32,000 nucleotides of DNA from Patescibacteria group bacterium (GCA_030549845.1 JAUQQN010000001.1:210001-242000), one strand, 5' to 3'; shown: positions 9,213 to 31,981, counted from the stretch's first letter. The notes: generated by a model from the letters alone, not told the origin. Program-made: numbers and translations.

Positions 9213-9419
9213 ATGAAAAAGGGGATTCATCCTAAATATTTTAAAGCAAAAGTAGTTTGCGCATGCGGTGCTGAATATGAAGTTTATTCTACAAAAGAAA
9301 AAATTGAAGTAGAAACGTGTAAAAACTGTGCTCCTATTTTCATTGGAACTGAAGAAAAAAAGGCTATTGTTGGACAACTTGAAAAATTCTACAAAAAGTA
9401 TAAAAAATCTGCAACTTAA
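9213..9419 (+). CDS. rpmE: 50S ribosomal protein L31 (Cys-containing, Zn-type)
   Basis: MKKGIHPKY start, with C-x-C and C-x-x-C pairs (CAC...CKNC). 68 aa. Confidence 0.9.
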   Translation: MKKGIHPKYFKAKVVCACGAEYEVYSTKEKIEVETCKNCAPIFIGTEEKKAIVGQLEKFYKKYKKSAT

Positions 9420-9446
9420 TTAATTTTAACTAATTTTCTAAAAAAA

Positions 9447-10199
9447 ATGGAAGATAGTAAAAAAATTAACGCTGTTTTATTTGAAATAAGAGCAGGCATC
9501 GGTGGCGAAGAAGCTGCTCTATTTGCTCGAGACTTATGGAGAATGTATTTAAAGTATTTTGAAAAGAAAGGATTCAAGGTTATTGTTTATGAAGATCATA
9601 GAAGCGATTTAGATGGAATAAAAACATTAGTAGCAGAAGTAAGAGGAGAGAATGTTTATGAGATATTAAAAAATGAAGCCGGTGTTCATAGGGTACAAAG
9701 AGTACCAATTACAGAAAAGTCTGGAAGAATTCATACCTCTACTGCTTCCGTAGCTGTACTTCCAAAATATGACTTTGTACCTATAGAAATTAAAGACTCG
9801 GATATAGAGATAGAATTTTTCAGGGCTTCCGGCCCAGGAGGACAAAATGTGAACAAAGTAGAAACAGCTGTTAGAATTTATCATAAACCCACAGGCATAG
9901 TTGTTTCATGCCAGACAGAAAGAACTCAGCAAAGAAATAAAGAAATTGCTTTACAGATCTTGAAAAATAAATTATGGCAACTTCAGCAAGAAAAGATAAA
10001 CGCTCAATTAGTACAAGAAAGAAGACACCAAATAGGATCGCAAGAAAGAGCTGAAAAAATAAGGACTTATAACTTTCCACAAAATAGAGTAACCGACCAT
10101 AGGCTTAATAAAAGTTGGTATAATTTAGAGGATATAATGGATGGAGATCTAGATATAATTATTAGAGCATTCAAAGAAAAAGAGGAAGTAAAAGCCTAA
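9447..10199 (+). CDS. prfA: peptide chain release factor 1-type protein lacking N-terminal domain 1 (250 aa)
   Basis: [20 protein letters not shown] begins at residue 15. P-x-T tripeptide context [20 protein letters not shown] loop [20 protein letters not shown]. rpmE-prfA adjacency. Confidence 0.85.
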
Positions 10200-19628: not shown

Positions 19629-20732
19629 CTACAATTTTTTAATTTCTTCAAAAAGTCTGGTTATAAAACTCTCTAAAGAAAATTCTTGTGCTCTTTTTTT
19701 AGCGTTTTTTCCAAATAATTTTCTTAATTTTTCATCTTCTAATAGTTTTTTAATAGCTTCATTAAGTTCTTGAGGATTTCTTGGTTTTACTACAAAACCG
19801 GTCTTACCATTAATATTTATCCAACTTGTTCCTGTTCCAAGTTCTGTGGAAATTACTGGTTTTCCAAAAGCCATTGCTTCTAAAAGAACAATCCCAAAAG
19901 TTTCTGATTTGTAAATAGAAGGCAAAACAAAAACATCACAAGCTAAATAATAAGGTCTTAGATCTTTTACCGAAGGAATTATAAAAACTTTACTTTCTAA
20001 ACCATAATTCTTTATCATTATTAAAAGTTTTTCTTTTAATTTTCCTTCACCAATTATAAGAATCTTTGCCTCAAGATCTTTACTGGCTTTAATCAAATAT
20101 TCGAAACCTTTGTAATAGATTAATCTACCAACAGATAAAATTAAAGGGGATCCAAATTTTTTTCTTATTTCTTCAGCTTCTTTTTTAAGACTATCATTTT
20201 CTTTAAAATATTCTAAATCTATTCCAAATGGAATGACAACACATTTTTCTTTAAATCTTTTTAAATAATTTGAATTTTCTATTAAATTTGGATTAGAAAC
20301 AAAAATTTTTTTTGCTTTTTTAAGAGCATATAAATGAAATAATCTAAAGAATACTTCTAATAATTTTTGTCTCACAATATCTGAATGATACCAAATAACT
20401 AAATTTTTATCCCTGGAAAATAAAGAATAGGCAATAAATCCTAGGGGGAAAGGATAATGTAGAAATATTAAATCATAATTTTTTTCTATATTTCTATAGA
20501 AATGTAGAAAATGAAAAGAGAGTGGCATTCCTAAAAATACACCCAAACTTTTTACTCGCATTACTTTCACTCCATTAACTTCTTCAATAACAGTTTTATT
20601 TTTGTCATTACATACTAAAACATCAACTTCTAAATCATCATTTTTATTCAAGCCTTCAGCAATCTCTTGAGCTATCTTTTCAACTCCCCCAATCCAAGGA
20701 TAATATAACTTATTTAACTGAAGGATTTTCAT
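19629..20732 (-). CDS. GT4-family glycosyltransferase
   Basis: GT-B fold hallmarks: N-terminal YPWIGGVEK and C-terminal PSIYKSETFGIVLLEAMAFGKPVIST (E-x7-E). It contains an intragenic copy of the 26-bp palindrome. Confidence 0.85.
   Translation of the reverse strand: MKILQLNKLYYPWIGGVEKIAQEIAEGLNKNDDLEVDVLVCNDKNKTVIEEVNGVKVMRVKSLGVFLGMPLSFHFLHFYRNIEKNYDLIFLHYPFPLGFIAYSLFSRDKNLVIWYHSDIVRQKLLEVFFRLFHLYALKKAKKIFVSNPNLIENSNYLKRFKEKCVVIPFGIDLEYFKENDSLKKEAEEIRKKFGSPLILSVGRLIYYKGFEYLIKASKDLEAKILIIGEGKLKEKLLIMIKNYGLESKVFIIPSVKDLRPYYLACDVFVLPSIYKSETFGIVLLEAMAFGKPVISTELGTGTSWININGKTGFVVKPRNPQELNEAIKKLLEDEKLRKLFGKNAKKRAQEFSLESFITRLFEEIKKL
20484..20509. promoter_or_regulatory. 26-bp composite palindrome, copy D (intragenic)
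   Basis: TTCTA TAT TTCTATAGAA ATG TAGAA. All 20 specified positions are identical to copies A-C. It encodes ...LHFYRNIEKN... of the GT4 protein. Confidence 0.5.
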
Positions 20733-21558
20733 AATAAGCTAAATAATAATCGCCTTTAATTTTTTTTAATTTAAAATTATATTTTTTTAAAAATTTAGAA
20801 ATGAAATTAAAATTTTCAACATTAGTCTTCCAAATTTCTATAATTATTTTAGACCTTAAGAAAAATAATGAATTTGCCATCCCTTTTAAAACTAAATCCT
20901 CAGCTCCTTCAACGTCAATTTTAATACAAGAAATATTTTCTAGTGGTATCTTAAAATTTCGAACAAAGATATCAAATGTAGTAGTATTTACATAAATTTT
21001 ACCAAATTGCTTGTCGAGATTTTTTAAAGAATGAGTTACTGAATATGGAGATAAATAAAAATCTATCATTCCAATTTTATCAGAAAGTGCTAGCTGTAGA
21101 GGAATTATTTTATTGTCTAAATGGTTTAATTGAATATTATCTTTTAAAATGGAAAAGTTTGTTGGTTCTGGCTCGAAGGCATAAATTTTTTCATAAAAAT
21201 CAGAAAATAAAATGGAATATTTCCCGATATGAGCGCCTGCATCTATGAAAATACCTCCTTTATTTTGAAGGAACTTATTTATCCCTTCATCAGCTAATAA
21301 AGTCATAAGGTCAATATCATCTCTAATTTTAAAAATTTTATTTTGTATTTTGATATTAATTTTTTTATATATTCTGCTAATAATATTTTTTCTTAATCGA
21401 AAATAAAAATCAGGATTTAAAAATTGGAGCGGTTTTAAAAATAATTTAGTTAGAGCGCCTAATATTATTTTTATTTTAATTAAGCCTGGGGCCTTAATTT
21501 GGAAAAGAAAAATTTGAGATCTTACAAAATGAAATAAATTCCAAAAAACTTTAGCCAT
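20710..21558 (-). CDS. FkbM-family SAM-dependent methyltransferase
   Basis: GGIFIDAGAHIGKYSILFS...IYAFEPEPTNFSILKDNI...IKIDVEGAE, the characteristic FkbM pattern. Confidence 0.8.
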   Translation of the reverse strand: MAKVFWNLFHFVRSQIFLFQIKAPGLIKIKIILGALTKLFLKPLQFLNPDFYFRLRKNIISRIYKKINIKIQNKIFKIRDDIDLMTLLADEGINKFLQNKGGIFIDAGAHIGKYSILFSDFYEKIYAFEPEPTNFSILKDNIQLNHLDNKIIPLQLALSDKIGMIDFYLSPYSVTHSLKNLDKQFGKIYVNTTTFDIFVRNFKIPLENISCIKIDVEGAEDLVLKGMANSLFFLRSKIIIEIWKTNVENFNFISKFLKKYNFKLKKIKGDYYLAYYENPSVK

Positions 21559-21561
21559 TAA

Positions 21562-22659
21562 TTAGTCTAAATAAATTTTTTTATATTTAACTATCATACT
21601 TTTAATATTATATTTTTCTTGGGTTAATTTAAATCCATTTTCGGCAATTTTTGTTTTTAAATTTTGATCTTTAAGTAATAGAAGGATTTTTTCTTTTAAA
21701 TCTTCTGGATCACCAAAATTAAACAAAATTCCATTTTCTTTATCTTTAATTAACCCTCTAATTCCATGAACAGCTGAAGCAATTACTGGTTTTTTTATCG
21801 CCCAAGCTTCTAAAATAACTAAAGGCAAGCCTTCCCATCGAGTTGAAAGGACGAAAATATCTGAATCTTGCAAAATTTCTTTTACTTCTTTTTTAAAACC
21901 CAAAAATATGATTTTGTTTTTTAATTTTAATCTTTCAACTAAATTTTCTAATTTCTTCATATCTGGGCCATTGCCAACTATAAATAAAATTATATTTTCA
22001 TTTCTAAGCAAATTAATTGATTTAATTAAAGTTTCGACATCTTTTTGATAATGAAGCCGGCAAATAGTTGTTATAATTATTTCATCTTGTAAATTAAAAT
22101 TTCTTCTTAAAAATTCACTTTCTATGTTTTGATATTCTTGTAAATTTATCCCATTTTCTATTAAAAATAATTTATTTTTTTTAATAAGTTTTAATTTATT
22201 AGCTAAATCATAATCATCCTTACTAACACAAATTAGATAATCGACAAATAAATAATTCGTAATTATTTCCCATATCAGAAAAATTAAATTAAAAGGGAAT
22301 TTTTTTCTTATAAAATGAATTCCATGAAGAGTATAAACAAATTTAAAATCTTTCCTTAGAGTTAAAAATAAAACAAGTTTTAAAAAAATACTTGCTCTAG
22401 TACCATGAACATGAATAATTGAAAATTGAAAATCAAAAATTATTTTTTTTAAACTTTTAATTATTTTTAAAAAAGATTTTTTTTTAGGGAAATAAATCTT
22501 GAAATCTTTTAATTCTTCTTCAAATTCTTTTTGGGGTTTTTGGGGTAGGAAAAATATAAAATCAAACTCATTTTTTAATCCTTTAGCAATATTAAGAGCA
22601 ATTTTTTCCCCTCCTGATAATTTTTCGCTACTTAAAATAAAAAGTATACTTTTTTTCAT
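21562..22659 (-). CDS. GT4-family glycosyltransferase
   Basis: SGGEKIALNIAKGL N-terminus and STRWEGLPLVILEAWAIKKPVIAS E-x7-E motif. Confidence 0.85.
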   Translation of the reverse strand: MKKSILFILSSEKLSGGEKIALNIAKGLKNEFDFIFFLPQKPQKEFEEELKDFKIYFPKKKSFLKIIKSLKKIIFDFQFSIIHVHGTRASIFLKLVLFLTLRKDFKFVYTLHGIHFIRKKFPFNLIFLIWEIITNYLFVDYLICVSKDDYDLANKLKLIKKNKLFLIENGINLQEYQNIESEFLRRNFNLQDEIIITTICRLHYQKDVETLIKSINLLRNENIILFIVGNGPDMKKLENLVERLKLKNKIIFLGFKKEVKEILQDSDIFVLSTRWEGLPLVILEAWAIKKPVIASAVHGIRGLIKDKENGILFNFGDPEDLKEKILLLLKDQNLKTKIAENGFKLTQEKYNIKSMIVKYKKIYLD

Positions 22660-23669
22660 AACTTTTTTAAAATTTCAAGGCCTTTTATATAGCTTTCTTT
22701 AAATTTAATTCTATAATAAAAAACTTTCATTCGCCATAAAAATTTTCTTTGAAACATTCTTAATAAATATTCTATTTTTCTGTAAGGTCTATAACCAGTA
22801 AAAGATAAAAGAAGAAAGAAGAAAGAAAAAAAATTAAATCCTATTTTTAATGAATTCAAAAATGCTTTTCTTCCCATGGAAAGATTATTTGACAAACAAT
22901 AGAAATTCCCTAATCTGGAATACCAAATTTTGCGCATAAAAATTGTATACTTAAAATATTTATCTTTATCACTAAAATTTCTTTCTTTTAATTTTTCTTC
23001 TGTAAATTCTTCAATTAAAGAATTTATTCTTTTGACAAAATTAATTGCATTTTTATTTTCCACGTATGAGCCTTGCTTGGGATGTCTTGAATAAAGAGAA
23101 ATTGGCTCTTTTCTAAGCAATGCTTGTTTATTAAAATTATCTTTCTCTTTTAAAAAATACCTATAAAGCATTCCAAACTCATCAACTCCGTTTTGTTCTG
23201 GTTTAAAATACTCTCCTTCCTTCACTACTTTTCTTCTAACAATTAAATTAACTGGCCCACCGTGTTCATAATTGATTATTTTTTTAGTATCTTCATCGAA
23301 AGCCCAGGCAATTGTATATAAAATATCAACTTCTGGATGCTCATCTAAGTATTTTACTCTTTTTTCTAAATTTTCAGGATAAAAAATATCATCTTGATCT
23401 AAAAAAGCTATATATTTACCTTTTGCTTCTTTACAAGCTATTGTTCTTGGAATTGCTGGTCCTCCAGTGTTTTCTTTTAATTCAATTAACTTAATTCTTG
23501 AATCTTTATAAACATATTTTTTAACTATTTCCACTGTTTTATCTTGAGAAGCATCATCTACAATAATCATTTCCCAGTCTTTAAATGTTTGCCATAAAAC
23601 ACTTTTTATCGCTCTCCCAATAAATTTTTCTCCATTATAAGTTGGAGTTATTATTGAAACTTTAGTCAT
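22656..23669 (-). CDS. GT2-family glycosyltransferase
   Basis: VSIITPTYNGEKFIGRAIKSVLWQTFKDWEMIIVDDASQDKT and FLDQDD (DxD). Confidence 0.85.
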   Translation of the reverse strand: MTKVSIITPTYNGEKFIGRAIKSVLWQTFKDWEMIIVDDASQDKTVEIVKKYVYKDSRIKLIELKENTGGPAIPRTIACKEAKGKYIAFLDQDDIFYPENLEKRVKYLDEHPEVDILYTIAWAFDEDTKKIINYEHGGPVNLIVRRKVVKEGEYFKPEQNGVDEFGMLYRYFLKEKDNFNKQALLRKEPISLYSRHPKQGSYVENKNAINFVKRINSLIEEFTEEKLKERNFSDKDKYFKYTIFMRKIWYSRLGNFYCLSNNLSMGRKAFLNSLKIGFNFFSFFFLLLSFTGYRPYRKIEYLLRMFQRKFLWRMKVFYYRIKFKESYIKGLEILKKL

Positions 23670-23671
23670 TT

Positions 23672-24649
23672 CTATTTAAAAAATAATATCGTATATATTT
23701 CTTTAAAAAGTATCCAGATCCTTAAATAAATAATTTTCCAAAACAAAAATCTAAAAAATAGCTGTAATTTTAAAAATTTATAATATAAATTCGAGTGGTT
23801 TATAAAATATGCTTTATTAGATTGTATTTCTAAAATTTTTTCCAAGATAAAATCAACTCTGTTTTTATAAGTATGTTTTTCTAGGGCCAACTTTCTTCCA
23901 TTTGCGGCAATTTTTTCTCTTTCGCTTTCATTCTTTAAATAATATTCAATTTTCTTCCTTAAGTCCTTATAGGTTCCATCATAAACTACTAAATGTTTTT
24001 TGTCCTCAAATAATTCCTCAAAGCCGTTATTTTTTATTTTATTTGTCATAAGCAAAGATCCTGAACACAAAGCTTCAAATACTCTCATGTTTATATCATT
24101 ATTTACATTATAATTAACAACTATTTTTGCTTGAGAATAAATTTTACCTATATCTTTACAATCACCTGAAGAAATAAAAGAATTAGGAAAATCCCTTTTT
24201 AAATTTAATAATAATTTCTTTCTCCACCCCTTACCAGTCTGCCCTATAAAGGCTATATCATATATTTTTTCAAGATTTTGTTTACCATGCCATTCTGGAT
24301 CACAAGCTAAAGGAAGCCAATAAGTATTCTTATTAACTTTTTTAAATTTCTCGACATATTCCTTTTGAGCAACAAAAATAAGATCAAAACTTTTAGCCAT
24401 AACTATATCACACATAAAAGAAGTATGAGAATCAATAATCCATATAATCTTAGGATGATAATTAATATCTAAAATATAGTGACTTCCATCGTCGATAGCT
24501 AAAATAAGGTGTGGTTCAAACTCATATATTTTCCGGAAATCTTTTTTATCCGATAAAATATAAACTTCATTTTTTCTTTCTAAAACTCTTAAAATATATT
24601 GTCCTGTAGTACATAAGTGATTTTTTTTAAAAATAAGAAGTATTTTCAT
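23672..24649 (-). CDS. CgeB-like / Glyco_trans_1_2-type glycosyltransferase-like protein
   Basis: C-terminal half (INMRVFEALCSGSLLMTN...LVVYDG...EREKIAANGRKLALEKHTY) resembles the CgeB-type GT-B C-domain. The N-terminal half has no assignment. Confidence 0.6.
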   Translation of the reverse strand: MKILLIFKKNHLCTTGQYILRVLERKNEVYILSDKKDFRKIYEFEPHLILAIDDGSHYILDINYHPKIIWIIDSHTSFMCDIVMAKSFDLIFVAQKEYVEKFKKVNKNTYWLPLACDPEWHGKQNLEKIYDIAFIGQTGKGWRKKLLLNLKRDFPNSFISSGDCKDIGKIYSQAKIVVNYNVNNDINMRVFEALCSGSLLMTNKIKNNGFEELFEDKKHLVVYDGTYKDLRKKIEYYLKNESEREKIAANGRKLALEKHTYKNRVDFILEKILEIQSNKAYFINHSNLYYKFLKLQLFFRFLFWKIIYLRIWILFKEIYTILFFK

Positions 24650-24803
24650 TTTAAAAGTTTAATATCGGTAACTTTTTCTATCATTTTATTATAATCTCTC
24701 ATTCTAACCAAAAACCATTATATTATAATCATCTTGATAATTTCTCTTGACTTAAAAATCATAATTATTGACGACAAAAGAATTGTCTTTTATTCATGGA
24801 TTA

Positions 24804-25949
24804 TTAAATTAATATCTTTTCAATAATTTTTTTATACTTACTAAGAGATGAATCTATTGAGAATGTATCTAAATTAGCTTTTGCATTTTTTATAAATTTT
24901 TCTCTTATTTCTTTATTTTTTAAAATAATTAAAATCTTTTCCGACATAATTTGTGAATTGCCAACTGGCACTAAAAATCCATTATATCCATCTTTAATTA
25001 TTTCTCTCGGTCCAAAATCACAATCAGTAGCGATAACTGGTAAATCACAAGCAATTGCTTCTATTAAAACAATCGGCATACCTTCATGAAAACTACTTAA
25101 AACAAAAACGTCTGAATTTTTCATATATTTATACGGATTATTTTTATGACCTAATAAAAAGACATTTGATTCCAAACATAATTCTTTGATTTCTGCCTCT
25201 ATCTTTAACCTATCAGGACCTTCACCTACAATTACTAAATAAGCATCAAGATTTTTAATCACAAGAGAAAATGCTTTTAGTAAGGTTATGATATCTTTTT
25301 GGTGTAAATCTAATCTATTTACAGCTAAAATTATTGGCTTTAATTTATTTTTAAAAATTTCTTCATCAATTTCTTCATTACTTAAAAATTTAATTTTTTC
25401 TATATCTATGAAGTTATAGACAAAAGTTGCTTTTTCATTTTTTAAATTAAATAAGTTTTTTATATCTTGTGAAACACCTTCGCTAGCAGTAACTATTTTA
25501 TCTACATTTTTAAAAGATATTTTGGTTAGAAATTTCACAATAAAATTTTGCTTATTAAATAAATATCTTGTATTACCTTGCTCAATAAAAATTATTTTAC
25601 TTTTTGGCGAAAATATTTTACTTATATAGTAAAAATTAGCATTTGAATGAGGACCGCCTCCAAAACAAATTATTAAATCTGGATTTATTTGAAAAATTCT
25701 TATTCCGAATAAAATAAAAAGTTTAAAGTAAAAAATTAAGTTTCTTGGAAAAAAATAAGGAAAAATTTTAATGCTTTCTTCCAAACCTTTTTTAAAATCC
25801 TTAATAGATTCTTTTTTTATTTTTGTATCAATAGTTAAAAGATAAATATCATATTCTTTACTTAAAAAGTTCATTAAAGCTAAAACTATTTTCTTTCTAC
25901 CACCCAAATCTCCCAACCAATTATCGCCTATAAAAAGAATCTTTTTCAT
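24804..25949 (-). CDS. GT4-family glycosyltransferase
   Basis: LSSFHEGMPIVLIEAIACDLPVIATD E-x7-E motif. 381 aa. Confidence 0.85.
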   Translation of the reverse strand: MKKILFIGDNWLGDLGGRKKIVLALMNFLSKEYDIYLLTIDTKIKKESIKDFKKGLEESIKIFPYFFPRNLIFYFKLFILFGIRIFQINPDLIICFGGGPHSNANFYYISKIFSPKSKIIFIEQGNTRYLFNKQNFIVKFLTKISFKNVDKIVTASEGVSQDIKNLFNLKNEKATFVYNFIDIEKIKFLSNEEIDEEIFKNKLKPIILAVNRLDLHQKDIITLLKAFSLVIKNLDAYLVIVGEGPDRLKIEAEIKELCLESNVFLLGHKNNPYKYMKNSDVFVLSSFHEGMPIVLIEAIACDLPVIATDCDFGPREIIKDGYNGFLVPVGNSQIMSEKILIILKNKEIREKFIKNAKANLDTFSIDSSLSKYKKIIEKILI

Positions 25950-25960
25950 TTCATAAAAAT

Positions 25961-26899
25961 TTAAAAAGAGATGTCGAACATTCGTTTTTTAAGTTTAAGT
26001 AAAAAGCTGTAAATGTTTTTCCCTAAAAAGGAAAGTAAAAAATTTCTGTATATGAAAAAATCCATCGGATAAACTTTAATGGCTTTTAAAAAATAAATCC
26101 TTGCTTTTGAAGAATCGCCACAGACCATATATAGAGTACCAATAGTCTTCAATCTATGAGAATAACTTTGAGGGTATTTTTTAAAAAAATTTTCATGTTT
26201 TTTGATCAAGTATAAATTTTCAGAAACTTGATTTTCGTAAGGAAACTGACTAATAGATATATTTCCACCATGAATATAGTACTTTAATAAAATTGATGGC
26301 ACAAAATCTACATTATAATATTGAAGTATTCGAATCCATAAATCTTGATCTGCCATCCTTCTTAAATTTTTATCTATAAGTCCTATTTTATTAAAAATTT
26401 CTCTCCTAATTAAAAGAGCACTTAAAGTAGTAGGAAGTCTTCCTTTTAAAACATTTTCAATTAAATTTTCTTTTAGAGCAGAAAATTTAAATTCTTTTTT
26501 AAAATTTGTATTTTCTTTAATTATTAAAATATCACAACCTACCATCCCAAGATTTGTACTATTTGATTTGTTAAATATATTTATTTGTTCTTCTAATTTT
26601 AGTGGCAACCATTCGTCATCAGAATCTAAAAAAGCTATAAATTCACCTCTTACGACAGATAAACCCTTGTTTAGTGCTGAGGGCCAACCTTGATTTTCTT
26701 GGTAGACATAGACTATTCTAGAATCTTTTTGTTGAAAATCTTCAACAATTTCCTTGGTATTATCAGTAGAACCATCATCTACAATAATTAGTTCAAAATC
26801 TTTATAAGTTTGATTAAGAACAGAATTTATTGCCCGTGGAAGAAGATCTGCTCTATTATAAGTTGTAATAATTACTGAAACAGTTGGGATTTTATTCAT
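25961..26899 (-). CDS. GT2-family glycosyltransferase with C-terminal helical (TPR-like) tail
   Basis: VSVIITTYNRADLLPRAINSVLNQTYKDFELIIVDDGSTDNT and FLDSDDEW. I prefer the ATG at 26899 (MNKIPTVSV...), which removes the overlap with the upstream gene created by the track start at 26959. Confidence 0.85.
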   Translation of the reverse strand: MNKIPTVSVIITTYNRADLLPRAINSVLNQTYKDFELIIVDDGSTDNTKEIVEDFQQKDSRIVYVYQENQGWPSALNKGLSVVRGEFIAFLDSDDEWLPLKLEEQINIFNKSNSTNLGMVGCDILIIKENTNFKKEFKFSALKENLIENVLKGRLPTTLSALLIRREIFNKIGLIDKNLRRMADQDLWIRILQYYNVDFVPSILLKYYIHGGNISISQFPYENQVSENLYLIKKHENFFKKYPQSYSHRLKTIGTLYMVCGDSSKARIYFLKAIKVYPMDFFIYRNFLLSFLGKNIYSFLLKLKKRMFDISF

Positions 26900-26933
26900 G
26901 TTGTTTAAATTCGCTAAATATATTTTATACCAT

Positions 26934-27959
26934 TTAAAATAACTCTGACCAAGTTGCAATTGCTTTTTTTAATTTTTTGAAATAATTTATCTTTATGTTT
27001 AATTTTTCAGCAATTTCTCGATAACAAGTTTTAAAATCGCTTTTAGTCAATTTTATCTCATTTATATATTTCCACAAATATTCATTAATTTTTATCCCTT
27101 TTCTCTCTTTTTCTAAATTTTTATAAGGATCACTTGCTCGATCATGCCAAATAACCGGATAGCCTGAAGTAATTCTATAACCCAGATGATCACAAATTTT
27201 TTTTACGAAAATTCCTGCCCAAATATCATCAAATCTATCAACCCCCCAAGATTTTTCATTTTTATCTTTGCCCATTAACATAAAATACATTGCTGGGGTT
27301 AATTCTCGTTTCCAAGCTAGATTCATACCACACATTGGAAAATATTTTCCTACAGGAATAATTTGTTGAATAAAATAATTTTCAATTTTGGGGAATTTTT
27401 TAAATTTTAATTGAGTAATAGCATCGAAATCTGGAATATTGGCCCATAAACCATGATTTAAAATAATTTTATTTGAATCAATAATATCTTCCACCTGTTT
27501 ATAAGGTAATCCTCTTGGCCTAATATTACCTTTTAATCTGATAGTTGAAACCCATTTTATTTCCTGATATGAATTCTTAAACAATGCATCATAATGAGAT
27601 TTAATAAAATTATTCTTATTAAAGTTTTTAATATAATTCTCTAATGGGTAACAATCATCGTCTAGAGCTATTATCATATCACTTTTCATCTGATATGCTT
27701 TCCAAAAACCATAACTTTTAATTGCTGAAGTTCTTCTTGGAATAATCCAACTATCTTTCCCTAAATCTTTTTCTATATCCTCCCAACTGTAATGAAAGAT
27801 TGGAAATTTTAAATTCTTATTTATTTCAAAAGATTTTATAGGATTATCTTCAATAATAATTAAATTAATTTTATATTTATCAAAAACTTCTTCCCATTCA
27901 CCAATAAATCTTCTTATAGAATTTTCTCTTATTGTTGGTACAACCACTGAAATTTTCAT
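26934..27959 (-). CDS. reversibly-glycosylated-polypeptide (RGP / GT75, UDP-arabinopyranose-mutase family) homologue
   Basis: Full-length collinear motif matches to plant RGPs as I remember them: VPTIRE, ALDDDCYP, RPRGLPY, HGLWANIPDFDAITQL, FPMCGMNLAWKRELTPAMYFMLMG, RFDDIWAGIFVKKICDHL, HDRASDPYKNLEKERKGI. Confidence 0.8.
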   Translation of the reverse strand: MKISVVVPTIRENSIRRFIGEWEEVFDKYKINLIIIEDNPIKSFEINKNLKFPIFHYSWEDIEKDLGKDSWIIPRRTSAIKSYGFWKAYQMKSDMIIALDDDCYPLENYIKNFNKNNFIKSHYDALFKNSYQEIKWVSTIRLKGNIRPRGLPYKQVEDIIDSNKIILNHGLWANIPDFDAITQLKFKKFPKIENYFIQQIIPVGKYFPMCGMNLAWKRELTPAMYFMLMGKDKNEKSWGVDRFDDIWAGIFVKKICDHLGYRITSGYPVIWHDRASDPYKNLEKERKGIKINEYLWKYINEIKLTKSDFKTCYREIAEKLNIKINYFKKLKKAIATWSELF

Positions 27960-27980
27960 CTTTAAAATTATTATTTAAGC

Positions 27981-28463
27981 TTATAAAAATAATAAACCTA
28001 TACCATAATTAAACTTATCAAAAATTATCTCGTTAATTCTGTAGCGATTTTTAAGTACTGACCAAAATTTAGGCACTTCAATATCTTTCCTTAAAGGGTC
28101 TTTATTTATAATATCATGAAAAGCAATAATTCCTCCTTTTCTAACTAAAGGACTATACATTTCGAAATCTTTTTTAACTCCTTCATAAGTATGATCACCA
28201 TCAATAAAAAGAAAATCTAATTGATTACCGCTTAAAATATTTTTAACTTCTTCTAGGGTTTCTTGGTTATGAGAGTCTTTTCTTAAAAGAAGAAGATTTA
28301 TTCTATTAATAGGCCGCTTCGTAGCTTTAATCAAAAAAATTTTCAAACCATAATTTTTAAGAACAAAAATTGATTTTTTAATTAATCTTAACATCTTGAG
28401 GTTTACGTAAATATTCTTAAACCAATAACTCCAATTTTTTCTTTCATTATTAAATTTTATCAT
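27981..28463 (-). CDS. class I SAM-methyltransferase (Methyltransf_24/CmcI-like), C-terminal half only; possibly a decaying gene
   Basis: LDFLFIDGDHTYEGVKKDFEMYSPLVRKGGIIAFHDI is the conserved distal half of the fold. The first 70 or so aa lack the E/D-x-G-x-G-x-G SAM motif I. A 396-bp non-coding stretch lies upstream. Confidence 0.5.
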   Translation of the reverse strand: MIKFNNERKNWSYWFKNIYVNLKMLRLIKKSIFVLKNYGLKIFLIKATKRPINRINLLLLRKDSHNQETLEEVKNILSGNQLDFLFIDGDHTYEGVKKDFEMYSPLVRKGGIIAFHDIINKDPLRKDIEVPKFWSVLKNRYRINEIIFDKFNYGIGLLFL

Positions 28464-28593
28464 AGAAAAATATTGGAGTTTAGCCTTTAAAATAAATAAA
28501 AATCTATTCCTATTTTAAGGATTTCCCATCTATCCATTGAACAATACTATTGTAATATTCTTAATAATATTGGAGTACTAACGCAAAAATATT

Positions 28594-28619
28594 TTCTATA
28601 TTTCTATAGAAAAATAGAA
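28594..28619. promoter_or_regulatory. 26-bp composite palindrome, copy A (upstream of the glycan operon)
   Basis: TTCTA TAT TTCTATAGAA AAA TAGAA, 131 nt upstream of the ATG at 28463, inside the longest intergenic region of the window. Confidence 0.6.
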
Positions 28620-28859
28620 TTAGGTATATCATTTTTTTATTTTTTCAATTCCTTAAGAAAAACAAAGGGTTAACTTATAGCCGAAAATTAATTAAGAATT
28701 TAAGTCTGAATTCAGGAGAATATTTCTTTAAATATTTTTTTATTTTTGTTATCAATCTTATTTTTAATTAAAGACAAAACTACCATATATACTTTAATAT
28801 AAGAATGGTTAATTTAAAAATCTAATTCTCTTTTGTTAATTTATTAAAAAGCTAAAAAT

Positions 28860-29804
28860 TTATTCTAAGTTTTCTTTGAACCATTCAACTGTAATTTTTA
28901 AGCCTTCATCTAAAGATACTTTTGGTATCCAACCTAATTCTTTTTTGGCCTTAGAATAATCTAAGCAACTTCTTCTTTGTTCTCCAGGTTTTCTAGGTCC
29001 ATGAATTTTTTTACAATTTGAACCAGTTAATTGTTTTAACTTTAGAAAAATTGTATTAATTGTTGTTTCTTTACCAGTCCCAATATTATAAACTCCGATC
29101 TTATTCTTCTTTATTGCTAAAATAAAAGCATTAACAACATCATCAACATAAACAAAATCTCTAGTTTGTTTTCCATTACCATTAATTATTGGTTGGTCAC
29201 CTCGAAGCATTTTATCACAAAAAATAGCAATAACGCCAGCTTCCCCTTTTGAGTTTTGTCTTGGCCCATAAACATTAGCTAACCTTAAAGCAATGTAAGG
29301 GATTTTAAAAACTTGAAAATAATAATTTAAATATTTTTCTACAGTCAATTTCTCAATTCCATAAGGGGAAAGAGGAAATTCAGGATAGCTTTCTGGAGTA
29401 GGAATAATTTTAACATCTCCATAAATAGCTCCACCAGTTGAAGCAAAAACAATTTTTGTGATTTTATTGTAATTTTTATAATGATATAATTTAGCGAAAC
29501 TTTCAATAATATTTAATGAACCTAAAATATTTATTTCAGCGCTTTTAATAGGATTTTCAACTGATTTTCTAACATCAATTTGGGCTGCAAGATGATAAAT
29601 TATGTCTGGTTTTTCTTTCTTAAATATTTCAAAAATTTTAGATGAGCAAATATCAATTTTATAAAATCTTGCTTTTTTATTTAAATTTTCTTTTTTACCT
29701 GACGAAAGGTTATCTATAATAATTACTTTGTGCTTTTCCTTAATTAGTCTATCAACTAAATGCGAACCTATAAATCCTGCTCCACCTGTGACTAAAATTC
29801 TCAT
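28860..29804 (-). CDS. GalE-like NAD-dependent nucleotide-sugar 4-epimerase (extended SDR)
   Basis: MRILVTGGAGFIGSHLVDRL, ASTGGAIYGD, and catalytic SPYGIEK (YxxxK). 314 aa. Confidence 0.85.
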   Translation of the reverse strand: MRILVTGGAGFIGSHLVDRLIKEKHKVIIIDNLSSGKKENLNKKARFYKIDICSSKIFEIFKKEKPDIIYHLAAQIDVRKSVENPIKSAEINILGSLNIIESFAKLYHYKNYNKITKIVFASTGGAIYGDVKIIPTPESYPEFPLSPYGIEKLTVEKYLNYYFQVFKIPYIALRLANVYGPRQNSKGEAGVIAIFCDKMLRGDQPIINGNGKQTRDFVYVDDVVNAFILAIKKNKIGVYNIGTGKETTINTIFLKLKQLTGSNCKKIHGPRKPGEQRRSCLDYSKAKKELGWIPKVSLDEGLKITVEWFKENLE

Positions 29805-30793
29805 TTTTGTAAAAGTTTAATCCACTTATTTTTAAATTTTAATGCTTTTTTAAAAGAAAGTTCAATACCTGTTTTTAAATCTATTTTTGGCTCATAGCCT
29901 AAAATATTTTTAATTTTTGATAAATCTGGTTTTCGAAATTCAATATCAGTAAATATATCTCCTCTTTCTTTTGTTGGCAAGTAAATGACATCAATATCTT
30001 CATGTAAAATTTTTAATTTTTTAGCAATTTTAATCATTAAATCTTTTAGCTCATTAATAGAATAGATTTCTTTGTCATTACCAATATTAAAAGTTTCTTT
30101 GCATTTATTTTTTATTAAATACTTTACCCCTAAAATAAATCCTTTAACTGTATCATCAATATAACAAAAAGCTCGTTTTTGATTCCCGTGTCCAAAAATT
30201 GTGATAGGTTTTTTAAAAATAATTGAATATAAAAAACTTGCAAAAACACGCGATGGTTTTTTTAAATCTACACCGAACCCATATGTATTAAATATTCTAA
30301 AAATAATAAAGGGTAAATTTGAAAGTCGTATAACATTTTCTTCTAAACATTTAACATGGGCATAATTCCACCTATTAGAAAATTCAAATACAAAAAAATC
30401 ATCTTCTTTAAAACTTTTCTTCTTAAATATCCCTAACAAACCGTAAACATCAGAGCTTGATGAAAAAATTATAGGTTTATTATATTTCTGAGCAATCTTG
30501 GTTAAAATTAAGGTATTTTTCAAATTCTGAATAACTTTTTTAAAATTTTTTATTGTTATATCAACTCCAACTATGCTTGCAAGATGAATAATTAAATCTA
30601 CATTTTTGACTATATTTTCTAAAATATCCTTATTTATTTCTGAACGATATATTTTAATATTTGAATTCTTTTCCAATAATAAACCAGTTCCAGAAGAAAA
30701 ATCATCTAGAATAAAAACAAAATTATTTTGAGATAATGCATTTGATAGATAACTTCCTATAAATCCTGCCCCTCCGGTTATAAGAATTTTCAT
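29801..30793 (-). CDS. NAD-dependent epimerase/dehydratase family protein (extended SDR, substrate unknown)
   Basis: MKILITGGAGFIGSYL Rossmann start (ATG 30793 preferred to 30835), SSSSDVYG, and YAHVK (YxxxK). ATGA-type overlap with the downstream epimerase. Confidence 0.8.
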   Translation of the reverse strand: MKILITGGAGFIGSYLSNALSQNNFVFILDDFSSGTGLLLEKNSNIKIYRSEINKDILENIVKNVDLIIHLASIVGVDITIKNFKKVIQNLKNTLILTKIAQKYNKPIIFSSSSDVYGLLGIFKKKSFKEDDFFVFEFSNRWNYAHVKCLEENVIRLSNLPFIIFRIFNTYGFGVDLKKPSRVFASFLYSIIFKKPITIFGHGNQKRAFCYIDDTVKGFILGVKYLIKNKCKETFNIGNDKEIYSINELKDLMIKIAKKLKILHEDIDVIYLPTKERGDIFTDIEFRKPDLSKIKNILGYEPKIDLKTGIELSFKKALKFKNKWIKLLQK

Positions 30794-30823
30794 ATTGATA
30801 AATTTTAACTTAAAATTTTTAAA

Positions 30824-30961
30824 ATGAGTTTGCAAAATAGAGATTATTATAAAGAAAAATTAAAAGATATAGAAAGAGAGGAATCAAAAAGGAGCATTTT
30901 TGTTATTGGAGTAGTCCTTTTAATAATTTTAGCCTTACTTTTAAGTTTGATAATATTTTAG
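30824..30961 (+). CDS. possible tail-anchored small membrane protein (45 aa)
   Basis: MSLQNRDYYKEKLKDIEREESKRSIFVIGVVLLIILALLLSLIIF: a charged N-terminal half and one C-terminal TM helix. TAAAAT (30811-30816) lies 7 nt before the ATG, like other operon heads here. It is the only plus-strand candidate between two minus-strand genes and is below the track cutoff. Confidence 0.35.
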   Translation: MSLQNRDYYKEKLKDIEREESKRSIFVIGVVLLIILALLLSLIIF

Positions 30962-30968
30962 ATAAAAA

Positions 30969-31463
30969 TCAAATATTTCTATTAATTTCTATTGAATGTT
31001 CATTTAGTAATTGAATAATTCGTTTTATTAAGGAATCTTCATTTGGGAAATCTAAGTATTGAATTTCATCTTTATAAAATGTGCTTAATGCTAATATATG
31101 GTAAACAAGACATTGAGAATAAATATTAGGGAATTTTTCCCTTAAGTTATTAAATTCTTTACTAAATTTCTCAGTTAATTCAGGGCTTTTTTCTAAAATT
31201 CCATAAATTTTTGTTTTAAAATTCATTAATTCTTCAACAAACCTTTCGTATAACTCATCTTCTTTAAGCTTTTGAATTTTCTTTTTTTCATTTCCTATTA
31301 TTTGTTCATTATCTTTTAAATTAAACTCTAAAATAACTAACAAAAGATTTCTTATATCTTCTTCGCTAATAAGGTTTTCCTTGATCAATCTCTTTACAAC
31401 ACTTTTTATTCCTTCCTTATTTGATGAGTTTATTAGTTTTTTGTTTTCTGGATGTTTTTTCAT
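30969..31463 (-). CDS. hypothetical cytoplasmic all-helical protein (164 aa from ATG 31463; 173 aa from TTG 31490)
   Basis: Open frame in the track with no motif I recognise. TGC-TATAAT (31476-31471 on the minus strand) lies 7 nt upstream of ATG 31463. Palindrome copy B lies about 100 nt upstream. Confidence 0.65.
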   Translation of the reverse strand: MKKHPENKKLINSSNKEGIKSVVKRLIKENLISEEDIRNLLLVILEFNLKDNEQIIGNEKKKIQKLKEDELYERFVEELMNFKTKIYGILEKSPELTEKFSKEFNNLREKFPNIYSQCLVYHILALSTFYKDEIQYLDFPNEDSLIKRIIQLLNEHSIEINRNI

Positions 31464-31559
31464 TGCCTTAATTATAGCAAAATATAACAAAAATTACCAT
31501 AGTGTATTAATAAAATTTTGTTAAGTTTTAAAATTAACTCTTCTTTGTACTATTTTATT

Positions 31560-31585
31560 TTCTAAATTTCTATAGAAAAATAGAA
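31560..31585. promoter_or_regulatory. 26-bp composite palindrome, copy B
   Basis: TTCTA AAT TTCTATAGAA AAA TAGAA, between the ArsR-like gene stop (31624) and the orphan gene start. Confidence 0.6.
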
Positions 31586-31623
31586 ATTAAATTTTGGACA
31601 GTAAATGTTTGACATTTTTTATT

Positions 31624-31911
31624 TTATTGGTTCTTAAAAAGTCCTTTATAAAATTCTTCAACTTGGGATAAAACTCTTAAACCTAGCTTTGTTATTTTAT
31701 AATTAACAATTAAGCCCTCTCTTTTTCTAGAGATCAATTGGGCCTTAACTAATCTTTCTAAATGAGGAATTACTGTTTTATAATTTTTCTCCAAAAAATC
31801 AGCTATACTTCCTGTATCTCTTTCACCTGAATTTTTAAGATAAATTAAAATTTTTAATCTAGTTTTATTCCCTAATGCTTTAAATAATGATTCCAATCTT
31901 TGCAAGTCCAT
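31624..31911 (-). CDS. ArsR/SmtB-family winged-helix transcriptional regulator (95 aa)
   Basis: LFKALGNKTRLKILIYLKNSGERDTGSIADFLEKNYKTVIPHLERLVKAQLISRKREGLIVNYKIT matches the ArsR HTH pattern (ALxxxxRLxIL...HL..L..A.L...R.G). No metal-binding Cys or His motifs are seen. Confidence 0.85.
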   Translation of the reverse strand: MDLQRLESLFKALGNKTRLKILIYLKNSGERDTGSIADFLEKNYKTVIPHLERLVKAQLISRKREGLIVNYKITKLGLRVLSQVEEFYKGLFKNQ

Positions 31912-31932
31912 ATTGCATTAAAATTTTATTTT

Positions 31933-31981
31933 ATTATAACAAATCATTTTTATTTTTCTATATTTCTATAGAAAATTAGAA
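31933..31981 (-). promoter_or_regulatory. promoter of the ArsR-like gene overlapped by 26-bp palindrome copy C
   Basis: Copy C: TTCTA TAT TTCTATAGAA AAT TAGAA (31956-31981). On the minus strand its proximal half-site TAGAAA (31960-31955) sits 16 nt upstream of the extended -10 TGT-TATAAT (hexamer 31938-31933). The ATG is at 31911. Confidence 0.6.

Follow-up and report, generated by a model that had tools for sequence, protein, structure and literature searches.

Organisation of the locus

The stretch of DNA analysed here (32,000 nt of a Patescibacteria group bacterium, GCA_030549845.1 JAUQQN010000001.1:210001-242000; hereafter the window) carries a gene for a 95-aa ArsR-like protein and, beside and beyond it, repeated copies of a 26-bp palindromic element, TTCTA-N3-TTCTATAGAA-N3-TAGAA. 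An earlier note on this DNA, made from the sequence alone, had proposed that the protein is a regulator and the element its binding site. We analysed both in silico, in the window and in other genomes. The window has a G+C content of 21-33%, and its housekeeping proteins (DnaE, EF-Ts, S2, a release factor, AlaRS and a MnmA-like protein) are bacterial. From 31911 down to 19629 it is minus strand throughout, comprising the ArsR-like gene, a gene for a 164-aa protein, two epimerase/dehydratase genes, a 396-nt gap and ten glycan-synthesis genes, whose members include a methyltransferase-like protein, an RGP family protein, two glycosyltransferases of family GT2 and three of family GT4, a Glyco_trans_1_2 protein and an FkbM methyltransferase. 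The four copies of the element in the window are spread along this 12-kb leftward gene cluster: copy D lies before the regulator gene, C after it, B in the gap and A within the last GT4 gene (Table 1). Our gene map agrees with the positions that the earlier note had given them relative to genes.

Table 1. Features of the leftward gene cluster, in positions counted from the first nucleotide of the window
Feature	Position	Strand	Basis and remarks
Candidate operator D	31956..31981		Exact match; end 44 nt upstream of the ArsR-like ATG (31911)
Predicted promoter of the ArsR-like gene	31933..31960	-	-35 TAGAAA 31960-31955, 16-nt spacer, TG-extended -10 TATAAT 31938-31933
95-aa ArsR/SmtB-family winged-helix regulator	31624..31911	-	Pfam HTH_5, family profile against PDB, AlphaFold2 model
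Candidate operator C	31560..31585		Exact match; 38 nt past the ArsR-like stop, 96 nt before the ATG of the 164-aa gene
164-aa gene	30969..31463	-	No Pfam or NCBIfam match
Two NAD-dependent sugar epimerase/dehydratase genes	29801-30793, 28860-29804	-	Pfam Epimerase, GDP_Man_Dehyd, E 6.5e-31 to 7.6e-63
Candidate operator B	28594..28619		Exact match in the 396-nt non-coding gap 28464-28859; 130 nt upstream of the first open reading frame (ORF) of the glycosyltransferase cluster (start 28463), 240 nt past the epimerase stop
Ten co-directional glycan-synthesis genes	19629..28463	-	ORF map, Pfam, gene calls and Pfam on L205
Candidate operator A	20484..20509		Exact match; intragenic in the last GT4 gene (19629-20732), 223 nt from the gene start

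The element in the window

Scanning the window for the pattern returned the four exact copies listed in Table 1. Dinucleotide shuffles lead us to expect 0.04 copies of the 26-bp motif, and none of 100 shuffles reached four, which bears out the earlier claim that four perfect copies at these coordinates are far beyond chance. The scan for TTCTANNNTTCTATAGAANNNTAGAA tolerated three mismatches, yet all four matches had none. The central decamer TTCTATAGAA is likewise confined in the window to these four sites, with 0.20 occurrences expected. With a position weight matrix derived from 18 sites of the window and of its nearest relatives, the four sites reach 38-42 bits; the next position in the window reaches 6 bits, this being an 8-bp offset of site D, and shuffled sequence reaches at most 3.9 bits. 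Thus the sites in the window are all-or-none, with four strong sites and no weak ones. One extra base is conserved on each side of the 26-mer (T before it and mostly A after it), extending the outer half-sites to the hexamers TTTCTA and TAGAAA. Beyond that single base per side, the flanks of the sites are unrelated.

Written as TTCTAnnnTTCT-AT-AGAAnnnTAGAA, the element is a 12-2-12 (26-bp) inverted repeat, which is the operator format of SmtB/ArsR repressors (PMC8790569). Operators of those repressors are found over the -35 hexamer or between the -10 and the start codon; they come alone or as pairs, some of them lie within genes, and binding to them is multimeric (PMC8790569). The two nested dyads described in the earlier note are therefore present, but as the standard SmtB/ArsR format, making the architecture less unusual than it had seemed. 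Measured from centre to centre, the pentamers of the inner pair are 5 bp apart and those of each outer/inner inverted pair 13 bp apart; this spacing suggests two dimers per site, each on one TTCTA-N8-TAGAA pair and offset from the other by 8 bp. In sites whose orientation is given by a single start-proximal gene, the conservation shows dyad symmetry as far as positions 0 and 27 (A0/T27 and A8/T19, ∼97% each). Such symmetry argues for recognition by a symmetric protein and not for a directional promoter element.

The intragenic copy A might be taken for a coincidence of coding sequence. Its codons read F-L-H-F-Y-R-N-I-E within the GT4 gene, and an exact copy of the motif lies at the same codons in a 76%-identical GT4 orthologue from another organism (L206:2705, TTCTAACTTTCTATAGAAAGATAGAA). 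Amino-acid changes between the two proteins in this segment sit only in the two N3 spacers, and the shared codons are identical in seven of seven cases, vs 64% gene-wide (p about 0.04-0.06). For these reasons we conclude, from comparison of the two genes, that site A is no accident.

A sensor-less ArsR-type protein

The 95-aa protein passes the Pfam HTH_5 model (31.1 bits, with a cut-off of 22). A profile of its family searched against PDB finds HlyU at the top (7e-13 to 1e-12), followed by Lmo1102, CadC, AspA (3.5e-8), CzrA and NolR. Its AlphaFold2 model, with a mean predicted local distance difference test score (pLDDT) of 80, has the winged-helix ArsR topology a1-a2-a3-a4-b1-b2-a5, in which a4 is the recognition helix; the elements are helices H3-13, H16-27, H33-39 and H44-56, strands E60-65 and E68-73, and helix H75-93. 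Foldseek aligns the model to CzrA with a template-modelling (TM) score of 0.77 at 27% identity, and the top 50 PDB matches are mostly ArsR-family proteins with a few winged-helix proteins of MarR type.

Cysteine is absent from the protein, and its one His, H50, lies in the recognition helix. None of the metal or thiol sensor ligands of the ArsR family, neither the a3N Cys pair nor an a5 site of Asp/His/His/Glu type, is present in it, and the family alignment conserves no Cys and no C-terminal His. The absence of a metal-sensing Cys/His site, already suggested in the earlier note, is upheld by this comparison. An exhaustive HMMER search shows the protein to belong to a narrow subfamily, with one representative below 1e-30 and seven below 1e-10, surrounded by 696 relatives of ∼90 aa below 1e-3.

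Linkage of the regulator gene and the element

As a reverse test, we took 80 metagenome loci picked solely by their similarity to the regulator (L120-L199), with groundwater data sets of Hainich and Rifle type among their sources. These belong mainly to the main subfamily of the protein; the window's own subfamily was examined on loci L097, L109, L200 and L201. At 79 of the 80 loci, the motif lies no more than 120 bp upstream of the regulator gene with at most four mismatches in its 20 specified positions (37 are exact and 69 have two or fewer), and the 80th locus has an exact copy at 101 nt. In this set the motif typically ends 8-10 nt before the ATG. Co-conservation of site and regulator in relatives had been set as a check beforehand, and it was found at all 80 loci. 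An operator lying in the regulator's own promoter, and conserved there in relatives, points on positional evidence to autoregulation. Further ArsR-like genes that happen to lie within loci selected by the motif follow the same upstream pattern with two exceptions, one being a 49%-identical gene that has no motif and the other a 39%-identical gene whose operator has TTATA half-sites in the same architecture.

The sequence of the half-sites varies together with that of the recognition helix. The window subfamily, with the helix YKxVIPHLERL, has TTTCTA/TAGAAA in all four half-sites, the main-group helix FKNISAHINKM is paired with ATTCTA/TAGAAT, and helices of the form FKT(V/A)SEHIRRL accompany the operator variants TTCTC or TTCT-TA-AGAA. 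When we compared neighbours across the loci, neither the motif nor the regulator had any constant neighbour gene besides each other. Upstream linkage, covariation of helix and operator, and the lack of any other constant neighbour together are what comparative genomics typically shows for an autoregulated transcription factor with its operator.

The genes around the regulator differ between loci. A layout of operator, regulator gene, operator and next gene recurs at L097, L201, L200, L079 and L087. The main-group regulator gene usually opens a tight operon, in which the following gene begins 4-10 nt beyond the regulator's stop codon; the genes downstream vary, among them those for a Cys-rich protein, a small membrane protein and a type that we take from its sequence to be FAD-linked oxidase-like. 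Genes often found upstream of the main-group regulator are presumably class II or class I aldolases, while in two relatives of the window subfamily the gene adjoining the regulator is one that we take to be galU (UDP-glucose synthesis). Gene calls on L001 and L002 likewise give the 164-aa ORF at that length; in the relatives examined, its place beside the regulator is not conserved. We also considered a conserved partner gene of SdpI type for the regulator, and rejected it on the variation of neighbours between loci.

Several operator variants deserve separate mention. Locus L200:1-760 (JBEQAR010000014.1; regulator 59% identical) has a 420-bp gap after its ArsR-like gene that holds five operator copies, at 362 (four mismatches), 427, 498, 570 and 649, within a tandem unit of ∼71 bp that also contains TTTGACTTTT. 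A sixth copy, cut by the end of the contig, lies ahead of the ArsR-like gene. Such an arrangement hints at titration, at cooperative assembly or at a role like that of a centromere. At L046:4751-5029, the 39%-identical ArsR-like gene (recognition helix YQSGAVHTQRL) is preceded by TTATATTATTATATATAATAATATAA, a four-half-site 12-2-12 repeat with TTATA replacing TTCTA. The genome also contains TTCTA sites, and the L046 pair of regulator and operator may be a diverged paralogue. Finally, an asymmetric centre, TTCGTTAGAA in place of TTCTATAGAA, recurs in operators upstream of the regulator (L120, L127, L137, L152, L155, L163, L176, L183 and others), and in these the intact TAGAA half is always on the side of the gene. 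The change may create a TG-like extended -10 (cGtTAGAAT), in which case the operator would double as core promoter in the main group.

Distribution and targets in Patescibacteria

An exact-pattern scan with one genome per species found the element on at least 117 stretches, so that regulon sizes per genome are lower bounds; the counts that follow are among the matches listed in that scan. Nearly all are in metagenome-assembled genomes of Patescibacteria (Nomura-, Campbell-, Wolfe-, Jorgensen- and Brennerbacteria, Paceibacter, Minisyncoccia and others), and the motif has no match in 2.9 million viral contigs. The earlier note had reasoned that occurrence at many loci with no promoter bias would mark a generic repeat. 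Many loci were indeed seen, but 128 of 131 sites fall between genes, although intergenic DNA makes up only 12% of the total (p about 1e-112), and they are often close to starts: 63 of 227 nearest downstream ORFs begin within ∼20 nt of the end of the motif, which very often occupies a tiny intergenic gap in other Patescibacteria genomes.

Two clusters dominate the nearest downstream ORFs, namely ArsR-like proteins of ∼90 aa (15 independent sites) and Cys-rich proteins of ∼570 aa (20 sites). The 15 exact sites in other genomes that lie directly upstream of ArsR-like genes amount to ∼11%, which is roughly what would be expected from an autoregulated regulon of 5-10 sites. Other downstream genes encode IleRS, TrpRS, dihydrofolate reductase, PurD, a GATase_5 amidotransferase, a formyltransferase, an M24 peptidase, superoxide dismutase, phosphoglycerate kinase, riboflavin synthase and a DD-carboxypeptidase, among others. 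The 'compact regulon' first envisaged for this locus does not survive these data, given that the same motif and regulator occur across many Patescibacteria lineages and before many different genes. Judged on sequence, the two form a class-wide regulator/operator pair with a variable regulon, in which the predicted target common to all genomes is the regulator gene and the others differ by genome; the pair would be an ancient and nearly invariant system of the Paceibacteria, a class of ultra-small bacteria (Patescibacteria, Candidate Phyla Radiation).

The ∼570-aa Cys-rich family is the commonest target other than the regulator itself (L003, L011, L017, L019, L049, L080 and others, as well as L202-L204). 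Its N-terminus reads CQNCKKDFxIEPDDFxFYEKIKVPPPxFCPxCR, and this is repeated near the C-terminus. Homologues number more than 5,500, every one of them annotated as 'hypothetical'; the family is highly conserved and often found as arrays of tandem paralogues. It has no match to a Pfam or NCBIfam model, and the AlphaFold2 model is poor (pLDDT 61) and gave no significant fold match. Three randomly chosen members inside tandem arrays had no motif directly upstream.

The motif was also seen, with an ArsR-like gene or a Cys-rich protein, on short contigs binned elsewhere: L051 (Nanoarchaeota archaeon), L077 (Omnitrophota) and P0191 (Burkholderiales). These are most likely mis-binned Patescibacteria contigs, so that the motif might be used to mark the lineage when bins are curated.

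Promoters and proposed mechanism

Between 28300 and 32000, the best promoter-like match to consensus (10 of 12 hexamer positions, plus TG) is that of the ArsR-like gene. Its -35, TAGAAA, is the gene-proximal half-site of operator D, and is followed by TGT-TATAAT. The same layout, in which the motif is followed after 14-17 nt by TGnTAnnnT, is present at L201 and L109. In the main group the operator is closer to the start codon, and hence must overlap the core promoter or the start site. Together with the 80 regulator-picked loci and the helix covariation, the -35 overlap strongly supports the earlier suggestion that the 95-aa protein would bind the sites and regulate its own gene.

Our proposal is that the 26-bp element would be the operator of the adjacent ArsR/SmtB-family protein, which would bind it as a dimer and probably as two cooperating dimers. 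A repressor bound at operator D would cover the -35 of the promoter with the TG-extended -10 and exclude RNA polymerase, resulting in negative autoregulation. Sites C, B and A would most likely be further repression or roadblock sites; site C in particular could block read-through, serve as a partner in looping, or be the next gene's operator. In this way the nucleotide-sugar and glycan genes would be expressed according to the amount of active regulator. It is plausible, going by the placement of the sites, that the regulator controls the glycan operon here; a more general link of the window subfamily to nucleotide-sugar and glycan genes, likewise based on position, is also plausible.

Several observations weigh against this proposal. 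The promoter scan placed no promoter at a consistent offset from sites A, B and C, in line with the earlier remark that two of the copies (A and B) had no convincing promoter at a matching offset; and in this AT-rich region promoter-like matches are not in excess, at 29 vs 27 in shuffles. Site C is ∼70-80 nt upstream of the sole good -10 before the 164-aa gene, an atypical position for repression. The first ORF after site B (160 aa) matches Methyltransf_24 in its C-terminal half alone (profile positions 56-105 of 105), and the segment 27981-28859 may hold a truncated gene or pseudogene of which the 396-nt gap is the remnant. As to the protein itself, it falls just below the cut-off of the NCBIfam ArsR/SmtB model NF033788 (52.7 vs 55). 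With these points counted, we put at roughly 80% the probability of the explanation as a whole, that is, a 12-2-12 operator of the adjacent ArsR-type protein, autorepression, further sites in the cluster and a class-wide pair.

A more ambitious interpretation, which we regard as rather unlikely, is that the sensor-less ArsR-type protein is a master regulator of the Paceibacteria, possibly architectural, that oligomerises, spreads or loops on 12-2-12 sites in the manner of AspA and has the Cys-rich ∼570-aa family as its core output. We raise it because tandem arrays (L200, with five to six copies) and pairs of operators bracketing the regulator gene would fit such a role. If true, it would offer an entry to a lineage-defining cellular system, Cys-rich arrays being found only in these bacteria.

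Alternative explanations

There are three other explanations for a motif with these properties. The motif might be recognised by some other, unlinked global regulator or by an alternative-sigma RNA polymerase, with the ArsR-like gene as no more than the most conserved target. In favour of this, the motif precedes many unrelated genes, the main-group TAGAAT looks like a -10 hexamer, and in many intergenic regions there is little else than the motif. However, operator variants follow changes in the ArsR-like recognition helix, there is no other conserved neighbour, and a directional promoter element would not be expected to show dyad-symmetric conservation. In the window subfamily, TAGAAA is without the invariant final T of a -10 hexamer and a separate TG-TATAAT lies downstream. 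Symmetric conservation and this separate hexamer led us to reject the motif as a -10 promoter, and we consider the different regulator or sigma factor, taken as a whole, quite improbable. A LexA/SOS box receives no support from gene content, there being no SOS gene among the downstream genes of the listed matches.

It is still less likely that the motif acts as an RNA hairpin, be it terminator, attenuator or translational operator. Of the 63 distinct sites upstream of the regulator, about half have spacer pairs 6/21 and 7/20 that do not complement each other, and the flanks beyond 0/27 are unpaired in this set. In favour of a hairpin are the perfect dyad, the fact that some copies in other genomes stand at the apex of longer palindromes with A and T runs (such as L009, L035 and L052), and the many copies that end 7-10 nt before the start codon. 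Against this, the commonest asymmetric change, TTCCA...TAGAA, produces a C.A mismatch in the sense strand (10 cases, vs two G.U), the stem is all A/T save for one G-C pair per half-site, the copies in the window have no T-run on the transcribed strand, and no site was among the intrinsic terminators found by the terminator scan. Least probable of all, in our estimation, is a dispersed selfish or structural repeat with no regulatory role, such as a repetitive extragenic palindrome (REP), a repeat like a miniature inverted-repeat transposable element (MITE) or a recombination site. Several identical copies per genome and the L200 array, with its five to six copies at a ∼71-bp period, speak for such a repeat, but no flank is conserved beyond 28-30 bp and, unlike in REP families, many candidate phylum-level lineages share the 20 core bases without change. 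The intergenic, start-proximal bias is extreme, viral contigs yielded no match, and there is no transposase or REP-associated tyrosine transposase (RAYT) gene among the neighbours of the sites. Thus, our preferred explanation remains the operator of the adjacent ArsR-type protein.

Other genes of the window

Two regions of the window outside the cluster also drew attention. In 9213-10199, a 68-aa ORF that we take from its sequence to be ribosomal protein L31 is followed by a 250-aa class-I release factor, which matches the RF-1 domain but only the C-terminal half of the PCRF domain and is without the usual N-terminal region. The segment 12480-16241 encodes a 1253-aa protein with two Lamin Tail Domain matches and a weak zinc-dependent phospholipase C match, which is probably a large surface or secreted protein.

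Significance and relation to known systems

Bacteria of the Candidate Phyla Radiation (CPR) are mostly uncultivated, with tiny genomes and few transcription factors. In the literature that we searched on the motif, on CPR regulons and on the BigR box, we found no description of this regulon, nor any experimentally or computationally defined regulon of this kind in CPR bacteria. A letter-perfect operator of 26-30 bp with a regulator of ∼90 aa would provide a cheaply testable regulon in uncultivated Patescibacteria, and permits prediction of co-regulated genes in thousands of metagenome-assembled genomes. It would also give a handle on the control of surface glycans in episymbiont-like cells and on the role of the Cys-rich ∼570-aa family, as well as a clean natural data set for covariation of operator and recognition helix in the ArsR fold.

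Among known systems, the SmtB/ArsR metalloregulators (SmtB, CzrA, ZiaR, AztR and AzuR) have the same fold and the same 26-bp 12-2-12 operator format. They also resemble the present system in having operators over the -35 or between the -10 and the start, one or two operators per promoter region, and intragenic copies (PMC8790569). The multimeric or cooperative binding of these proteins is one that we likewise propose for the window protein. Unlike them, the window protein has neither the a3N Cys nor the a5 His/Asp/Glu ligands, and the operator sequence is unrelated, consisting here of TTCTA/TAGAA pentamers and in the metalloregulators of a TGAA...TTCA core. The targets here are glycan, housekeeping and Cys-rich protein genes, whereas those of the metalloregulators are genes for metal efflux or metallothionein. 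A further difference is that the operator sequence here is conserved across a class-level radiation.

A second group for comparison is that of small ArsR proteins other than metal sensors. HlyU, BigR and SqrR are of this kind, HlyU being the best sequence match. These three proteins sense redox state or persulfide via a Cys pair, whereas the window protein has no Cys; in addition, HlyU is mainly an anti-silencer or activator, while the operator positions here indicate repression. SdpR and PagR, which are ligand-less autorepressors, are also of small ArsR type, and the window protein matches the NCBIfam SdpR-family model at 4.9e-11 and that of PagR weakly. Both scores are, however, far below the family cut-offs (42 vs 100 bits), and no conserved SdpI-like membrane partner adjoins the regulator gene. 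A resemblance is also seen to AspA, the ArsR-like centromere-binding protein of the Sulfolobus plasmid pNOB8, both in the ArsR-like fold (TMt 0.86-0.88) and in sequence (3.5e-8). AspA recognises a palindrome upstream of the operon that encodes it, and spreads along DNA; unlike it, the window protein has no parA/parB partners, and its candidate sites are chromosomal, dispersed, and beside the start codons of metabolic genes.

Our conclusion from these comparisons is that the proposed mechanism is a classical one, that of an ArsR/SmtB autorepressor with its 12-2-12 operator. What is new is this particular system, which combines a sensor-less subfamily, a near-invariant class-wide operator, and a variable multi-operon regulon in which the Cys-rich family is the top target after the regulator itself.

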